A stretch of DNA of 64,000 bases from Escherichia coli (GTDB lineage: Bacteria > Pseudomonadota > Gammaproteobacteria > Enterobacterales > Enterobacteriaceae). Shown here one piece after another: positions 54,751-55,320 of this stretch. Position numbers and translations under genes: made by a program. How positions within the stretch are numbered: position 1 is the first letter of the stretch; every line of letters starts with the position of its first letter. The notes beneath the pieces are model-generated. The model was not told the DNA's origin and ran no database searches. It saw only the letters and a program-made list of their open reading frames with translations. The stretch is from NCBI RefSeq assembly GCF_002854065.1, contig NZ_CP024147.1; one strand, 5' to 3'.

Positions 54751-55320
54751 GTGTGAACCCTCGCGATAATCCTATTTAAATTTTTGCTGAATAGATCACA
54801 GTCACGTTCTGTTTTGTATGAACTGTTTTCAGAGCCTGACTAAATATCCGTTTGGTCGTTACCGGCTTTAGCAAATACCTCACAGTGAATATTGGCTGAT
54901 TAAAGCAGCGGCAAATTTATGCACTGTGATAAGCGGCTTTTTCAGAGAGAAAAACTCTCTGGCGATGGGTTTAAAGTTTGTACTGCGCAGATGTTAATGT
55001 TTTGTTTGCTGTTATCTTATTGATATTTATCGGTCTATTTTTTGTTCTCAGGGCAGATATCATTAGGTTTATAGATTAATCTGATCTACCCATTTGTGGG
55101 TAAAAATACACACAATGCGGGTGACATAATAGTTAATTAACTTTTGTTAGCGTTTTGAAATTAAAAACACCGTTCACCTGAAGAGATATTAATTTTTAGC
55201 GATGATGGAGGGATAATTATATTTGATCTGGCACAAGTTTTACTGATGAAGGATGTAACTTGTGCCAGGGGTATTTTGCATTACGGTAATAATTATTACT
55301 TACAGATAACCAGCGATCCG
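54751..55320 (-). promoter_or_regulatory. Long AT-rich dcuB upstream regulatory region
   Basis: 570-bp non-coding gap upstream of dcuB; contains the palindrome acccatttgtgggt (55088-55101) and several TTGAT-type half-sites; individual sites not resolved. Confidence 0.5.

Follow-up and report, generated by a model that had tools for sequence, protein, structure and literature searches.

The closest described relatives of the element discussed here are the NarL/NarP sites of nirB, napF, nrfA and fdnG. Their 7-2-7 sites are backed by footprints; the dcuB site is predicted from sequence. For dcuB-fumB, a known route of nitrate control is an indirect one, in which NarL represses dcuSR. Golby, in 1998, is said to have described NarL-mediated nitrate repression of dcuB. 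Inhibition of dcuB-fumB by NarL has also been reported, and repression of dcuB by this regulator has been known since the 1990s. The NarL sites that databases give for the gene are guesses from a consensus, placed from a start near the start codon.

Five such dcuB heptamers are found in the 2009 RegulonDB/CoryneRegNet set: CACACAT, ATGTTAT, TAATCCT, TACAAAA, and TACCTCA (PMC2718512). They map to 54741-54888, in the leader and about the start codon, which puts them 210-350 nt downstream of the distal dcuB start. They are weak matches, most of them not conserved outside Escherichia, and one of the five was proposed for deletion by the authors of MotifAdjuster (PMC2718512). A literature search for genome-wide NarL/NarP binding data in E. 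coli found none. The present analysis concerns a palindrome elsewhere in the dcuB upstream region, which is predicted, with fairly good confidence, to be a high-affinity 7-2-7 operator for the phosphorylated nitrate/nitrite response regulators NarL and probably NarP, lying across the start of the distal dcuB-fumB promoter.

The window, i.e., the whole 64-kb stretch of E. coli DNA that was analysed, includes dcuB, which encodes a fumarate transporter, and dcuR (Table 1). The open reading frames at 51686-53332 and 56037-57668 are presumably fumB and dcuS, judging by their size and position. The dcuB-dcuR intergenic region (54751-55320) is 570 bp long and has 36% G+C. It is collinear with that of K-12 MG1655, from which it differs by four substitutions, none of them in the palindrome. 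A preliminary description of this DNA had called the dcuB upstream region unusually long and AT-rich and had pointed out a 14-bp palindrome in it. Both observations hold. A promoter placed far upstream and a leader of 347 nt account for the long AT-rich region. The palindrome itself, acccatttgtgggt at 55088-55101, has 5-bp arms (ACCCA/TGGGT) and a 4-bp centre, and its symmetry continues for one more base on each side, giving 6-bp arms (TACCCA-TTTG-TGGGTA, 55087-55102).

Bare palindromy at this position is not beyond chance. Palindromes with 5-bp arms and a 4-bp spacer occur 82 times in the window where 62.5 are expected, and those with 6-bp arms 28 times where 15.6 are expected. In the 570-bp region there are 17 palindromes with 5-bp arms when any spacer of 0-10 bp is allowed. 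The NarL/NarP 7-2-7 match, by comparison, is beyond chance. TACCCAT-TT-GTGGGTA agrees with TACYYMT-NN-AKRRGTA at 13 of the 14 specified bases, the remaining one being a mismatch. Only two positions in the 64 kb, including the dcuB palindrome, fit this consensus with at most one mismatch. The two dcuB heptamers are inverted, and the spacer between them is exactly 2 bp.

The same match can be expressed as a score. A weight matrix was made from 68 strand-corrected NarL heptamers of RegulonDB/CoryneRegNet, as given in the MotifAdjuster supplement (PMC2718512), none of which comes from the dcuB palindrome. With this matrix the palindrome reaches 16.8 bits (9.7 + 7.1) and ranks second among 63,985 window positions. 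It outscores nine of the ten listed 7-2-7' pairs (nirB has 19.1 bits, the other nine 10.5-15.6 bits). In simulated sequences of intergenic composition, scores at least as high as that of the palindrome arise at 5e-7 per position, so that about 3e-4 such matches are expected in 570 bp.

A match as high as the dcuB site is found in the coding sequence of melA, where TACCGCTGGATGAGTA (48784-48799) scores 17.0 bits with the 7-2-7 matrix. It is unchanged in K-12. At most about 0.03 matches of this level are expected per 64 kb (none was seen in 2 million positions of window composition, and the intergenic-composition rate gives ~0.03). The melA match may be due to chance or may be an intragenic NarL/NarP site. 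Because an equally high-scoring match lies inside melA, a high score alone is no proof of function.

The dcuB palindrome could likewise be a product of chance and have no function. Palindromes of similar size are common both in the window and in the AT-rich region, and the melA match is comparable. Such an origin is nevertheless very unlikely, given the small number of matches this good that is expected in 570 bp, the location of the palindrome exactly on a start site, and the recurrence of the motif at a fixed offset across genera.

The evidence for the start site is as follows. A consensus scan of 54700-55400 for promoters and terminators gave no match, and the distal promoter was therefore placed from published coordinates. 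In an FNR ChIP-seq study, the dcuB FNR motif TTGATCTGGCACAA is given at U00096.2 4,347,240, at -132.5 from the start site (Myers 2013, PMC3688515). An anaerobic sigma-70 ChIP peak is found at U00096.2 ~4,347,120 (PMC3688515), which corresponds to ~55103 in the window. These coordinates were mapped by way of the K-12 record and the 1,977-bp offset between genome versions, and the mapped bases are self-consistent. In the dcuB-strand sequence GTATTTTTACCCACAAATGGGTA, TATTTT occupies -11 to -6, transcription begins at the A of TACCCAC, and the 7-2-7 match runs from -5 to +11. This position is compatible with the NarL inhibition reported for dcuB-fumB. The -35 of the distal promoter is poor, as is to be expected of a promoter that depends on an activator.

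Table 1. Coordinates of the features discussed, as positions in the window
Feature	Position	Strand	Remarks
dcuB coding sequence	53410..54750	(-)	RefSeq annotation of matching genomes; regulated gene
dcuB leader	54751..55096	(-)	347 nt including the start base 55097
Listed CRP site	54860-54891		Database
Leader stem-loop CAGAGAG-TTTTT-CTCTCTG	54943-54961		Preceded by nearly invariant CCATCGCC (54961-54968, dcuB strand)
16-bp palindrome	55087..55102	(-)	dcuB strand TACCCAC-AA-ATGGGTA; inverted NarL/NarP-type heptamers, 7-2-7; -5 to +11 of distal dcuB promoter
Second heptamer TACCCAT	55087..55093	(+)	7/7 to consensus; 9.7 bits
Promoter-proximal heptamer TACCCAC	55096..55102	(-)	6/7 to TACYYMT; 7.1 bits; start site inside
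Distal (DcuR/FNR-dependent) dcuB start site	55097	(-)	Derived from FNR motif at -132.5; published table citing EcoCyc and Kim et al.
-10 hexamer TATTTT	55103..55108	(-)	Within TGTGTATTTTTA, invariant across genera
43-nt block GTTTTTAATTTCAAAACGCTAACAAAAGTTAATTAACTATTAT	55126..55168	(-)	-71 to -29; nearly invariant; contains ArcA-like GTTAATTAA
FNR site TTGTGCCAGATCAA	55223..55236	(-)	Centred at -132.5; published motif and ChIP-seq peak; conserved in alignment
dcuR	55321-56040	(-)	RefSeq annotation of matching genomes
dcuS 7-2-7' pair TAATTCAAAGGGAGTA	57719-57734		Upstream of dcuS (start codon 57668); matches listed TACTCCC / TAATTCA; 10.5 bits

The 43-nt block upstream of the distal promoter is probably the DcuR footprint. 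Janausch, in 2004, is said to have found a DcuR footprint that lies upstream of the proximal start by 359 to 400-410 bp. Abo-Amer, also in 2004, reportedly identified a new dcuB promoter with a DcuR site 27 bp upstream of it. We take the position of the block to fit both descriptions. On the other side of the start site, the leader contains an ArcA ChIP motif, a covarying hairpin, and the CRP site and NarL heptamers of the databases (54741-54895).

Further upstream, 53-93 nt past the dcuR stop codon, lies a 12-bp inverted repeat, CTGGCACAAGTT / AACTTGTGCCAG, with arms at 55228-55239 and 55257-55268. One arm bears the ChIP-mapped FNR site, and the other occurs in Escherichia only. Since the repeat has no U-tract, it is not a canonical terminator.

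Conservation was followed by scanning for DcuB relatives in one genome per species, which gave 80 loci. The upstream alignment consists of 15 loci of Escherichia, Salmonella, Citrobacter, Trabulsiella, and Intestinirhabdus; these genera contribute 27 loci in total. The invariant TGTGTATTTTTA and the upstream block are present in all 27. The 16-mer that follows TGTGTATTTTTA occurs in 16 distinct versions, and the 2-bp spacing of the heptamers is kept in every one of the 27 loci. In 23 of them, from Escherichia, Citrobacter, Trabulsiella, and Intestinirhabdus, the best 7-2-7 matrix match within 800 bp upstream is found at the identical offset. These 23 loci have 13 different 16-mers, all within the NarL consensus, and score 12.1-19.2 bits (p <=0.025 for each locus, compared with composition-matched random sequences from a first-order Markov model). 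Examples with substitutions inside the consensus letters are TACCCATAAATAGGTA, TACCCATAAAGGATTA, TACTCCTAAAGGATTA, TAATCACAAAGGAGTA, and TACTCATAAAGGAGTA.

Within E. coli, the surrounding 60-mer is present at >=95% identity in 5,369 of 5,426 complete genomes, and the palindrome is kept in three sampled variants of this 60-mer as well as in K-12. At 55113, position -16 of the distal promoter, the base in the window strain is a rare one, and only two of 5,370 E. coli records match its 60-mer exactly. In strain USML2 (locus L084), 14 bp are deleted between the TATTAT element and the -10 hexamer.

The main rival explanation is that the conservation reflects only constraint on the core promoter and the initially transcribed sequence, and that the symmetry and the resemblance to NarL heptamers are incidental. 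The start site does lie within the palindrome. Invariance is seen in the flanking TGTGTATTTTTA, in the TA with which the site opens, and in its AA spacer, and the TA and AA could be constrained by promoter function instead. Moreover, Salmonella retains the promoter block and not the heptamers: the site is degenerate and the block intact in Salmonella enterica subsp. diarizonae and subsp. arizonae (TATTAAAAAAGGGATT, TATTAAAAAATGGATA), as well as in two Citrobacter species.

Promoter constraint alone is nevertheless considered unlikely. The variable positions change only within the letters of the NarL consensus, and high scores are kept throughout the 23 loci, whereas the neighbouring spacer and the downstream flank diverge freely between genera. 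Likewise, 7-2-7 matches recur upstream of dcuB in genera whose promoter layouts are unrelated. On the preferred reading of the palindrome as a NarL/NarP operator, the degenerate sites of Salmonella and the two Citrobacter species suggest that some lineages can do without NarL control at this position. The preliminary description had made conservation across the Enterobacteriaceae a test of the palindrome; the motif is kept in Escherichia, Citrobacter, Trabulsiella, and Intestinirhabdus, and not in Salmonella.

Across the 474 kb of the 80 loci, 31 matches reach at least 14 bits, and 30 of these are located upstream of dcuB. The 16 matches of at least 16 bits are all among these upstream ones. 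Some of the upstream matches are in genera whose dcuB promoters cannot be aligned with the E. coli promoter, namely Pectobacterium, Leminorella, Limnobaculum, and an Enterobacter. Because the loci are related, the 30 matches are not independent events, yet they represent several unrelated layouts.

A separate conserved block, ATGGGTAAAAWTTCTACAYGTATCAAAAAAT, is found in Klebsiella, Raoultella, Enterobacter, and Leminorella (loci L027-L032, L034, L041, and L048). It lies ~225-250 bp upstream of dcuB, or ~426 bp in L034. The block starts with the NarL-type half-site ATGGGTA (ATAGATA in L034), and a full 7-2-7 arrangement is present only in some of these loci.

Inverted repeats suit many dimeric regulators, and the palindrome might thus serve another one, either a LuxR/FixJ-type or unknown factor or CRP at a weak site overlapping the -10. 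The assignment to NarL was made by comparing sequences, and TGTATTTTTACCCACA agrees with the CRP consensus TGTGA-N6-TCACA at 7 of 10 positions. The right half of this CRP-like sequence, however, is not conserved. FNR can be set aside as well: the palindrome has at least four mismatches in ten to TTGAT-N4-ATCAA, and the FNR site mapped by ChIP lies at 55223-55236. For ArcA there are at least 7 mismatches in 15 anywhere over the palindrome, and the ArcA ChIP motif ATGTTAATGTTTTGTTTGCTGTTATCTTATTGA (Park 2013 supplement) maps to 54991-55023, in the dcuB leader at ~+75 to +107. A better match to the ArcA consensus, GTTAATTAACTATTA with 2 mismatches in 15, occurs at 55127-55141, in the invariant upstream block.

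With FNR and ArcA sites mapped elsewhere, and with half-sites, spacing, and orientation that suit NarL/NarP in particular and a score above most listed 7-2-7 sites, a different regulator is quite improbable. A TACCCA-N4-TGGGTA motif is not known for any other E. coli regulator.

The preliminary description had already observed that the arms of the palindrome match neither the FNR nor the CRP consensus, and the best overlapping matches bear this out, with 4/10 mismatches for FNR and 3/10 for CRP. It had also proposed a comparison with mapped DcuR, FNR, NarL, and CRP sites, and the palindrome is absent from the FNR, ArcA, CRP, and NarL sites recovered from databases and ChIP papers. Its suggestion of a dimeric regulator stands, given the inverted half-sites. 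The idea that the regulator is one yet to be assigned does not, as NarL/NarP is the most likely candidate; NarL figured in that description only among the factors to be compared. A full-text literature search found neither the 16-mer nor a 7-2-7 site at dcuB; the primary studies of the dcuB promoter were outside this search, so a prior description is possible.

Another explanation for a palindrome next to a promoter is an RNA hairpin, formed either at the 3' side of dcuR read-through transcripts or at the 5' side of the dcuB mRNA. The RNA of the dcuB strand folds to -8.9 kcal/mol (z = -2.7). This explanation is extremely unlikely on several counts. Transcription starts inside the left arm, and the dcuB mRNA is thus unable to form the palindrome hairpin. 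A reading as terminator or structured RNA was discarded, as the palindrome shows no covariation and has no U-tract, no terminator call, and no Rfam match. Nor is complementarity kept across genera: 14 of the 22 distinct sequences lack the third pair, 13-24. The arms are paired at 72.7%, compared with 70.6% in shuffled alignments, and 113 of 500 shuffles are at or above the observed value. That complementarity of the arms is not selected fits recognition of each half-site by a protein, and not a hairpin.

A positive control for this test is provided by the leader stem-loop, a true hairpin 140 nt downstream. It is 91.2% paired, compared with 84.2% after shuffling, none of 500 shuffles is as high, and five of its seven pairs show compensatory changes. 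In nearly all 27 loci it is found ~218 nt ahead of the ATG, even though the interval between it and the distal promoter ranges from 144 to 312 nt. The stem-loop has no Rfam match, and none of the 32 more distant loci checked (Klebsiella, Serratia, Pectobacterium, and others) contains it.

Several mutations that were selected when E. coli evolved in the mouse gut fall in the dcuB upstream region. One of them is an A>T change at U00096.2 4,347,121 (PMC5094792 supplements). It maps to 55104, 2 bp upstream of the palindrome, and converts the -10 hexamer from TATTTT to TATTAT. By improving the -10, it provides independent support for the hexamer. An IS2 insertion maps inside the palindrome, at 55088 (55088-55092), and the clone that carries it has higher anaerobic dcuB mRNA (PMC5094792). 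This insertion was not adopted as proof of lost repression. Since IS2 separates the promoter from dcuB and may also create a new one, the raised anaerobic mRNA is ambiguous. A second IS2 insertion is found at 55109, just upstream of the -10, and an IS5 insertion in the dcuB leader at ~54868, near the listed CRP site (PMC5094792).

From the observed motif match, its location with respect to the start site in the literature, and a conservation that preserves the motif, we infer binding of NarL/NarP and a repressive effect. In the proposed mechanism, a NarL dimer would occupy both inverted heptamers when nitrate is present, directly downstream of the -10 hexamer. The bound dimer would then keep RNA polymerase either from forming the open complex or from escaping it. 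The result would be a direct shut-off of both fumarate uptake and fumarase B, beside the indirect route through NarL repression of dcuSR. NarP would probably bind at the palindrome alongside NarL.

A further claim goes beyond binding and is held only tentatively: the palindrome, and not the weak heptamers near the start codon, may be the true operator, as yet unannotated, through which nitrate represses dcuB-fumB directly. On that reading, and with the same reserve, the palindrome may also be among the best 7-2-7 matches of the E. coli genome and a target of selection in the gut. If it is the true operator and acts on the distal DcuR-dependent start, then the database annotation of a model promoter for the hierarchy of electron acceptors needs correcting. 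A handful of point mutations would suffice to separate direct repression by nitrate from the indirect route through dcuSR. The mutations selected in the gut, clustered around 55088-55109, would gain a mechanistic reading, and loss of the site in Salmonella would mark a lineage-specific rewiring of the hierarchy of nitrate over fumarate. The gain is incremental and not conceptual, and the element is of an ordinary kind.

Comparison with known systems shows both likenesses and differences. The database heptamers of dcuB share with the palindrome the gene, the regulator, and the reasoning from a consensus; they differ in being single, weak, and located elsewhere. The NarL repression sites of dcuS, aspA, and frdA belong to the same pathway and follow the same logic of nitrate over fumarate, with 7-2-7-type sites in promoter regions. 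With 16.8 bits, the dcuB site scores above those of dcuS (10.5), aspA (15.6), and frdA (14.0), and it is missing from the lists that name them.

The sites of nirB (at -69.5), napF, nrfA, and fdnG likewise consist of two inverted TACYYMT heptamers with a 2-bp spacer, and the score of the dcuB site is within or above their range. Its left half, TACCCAT, is identical to listed heptamers of nirB, narG, and narK. The difference is one of position and effect. The nirB, napF, nrfA, and fdnG sites lie upstream of the promoter and act in activation or anti-repression, whereas the dcuB site overlaps the start and would repress.
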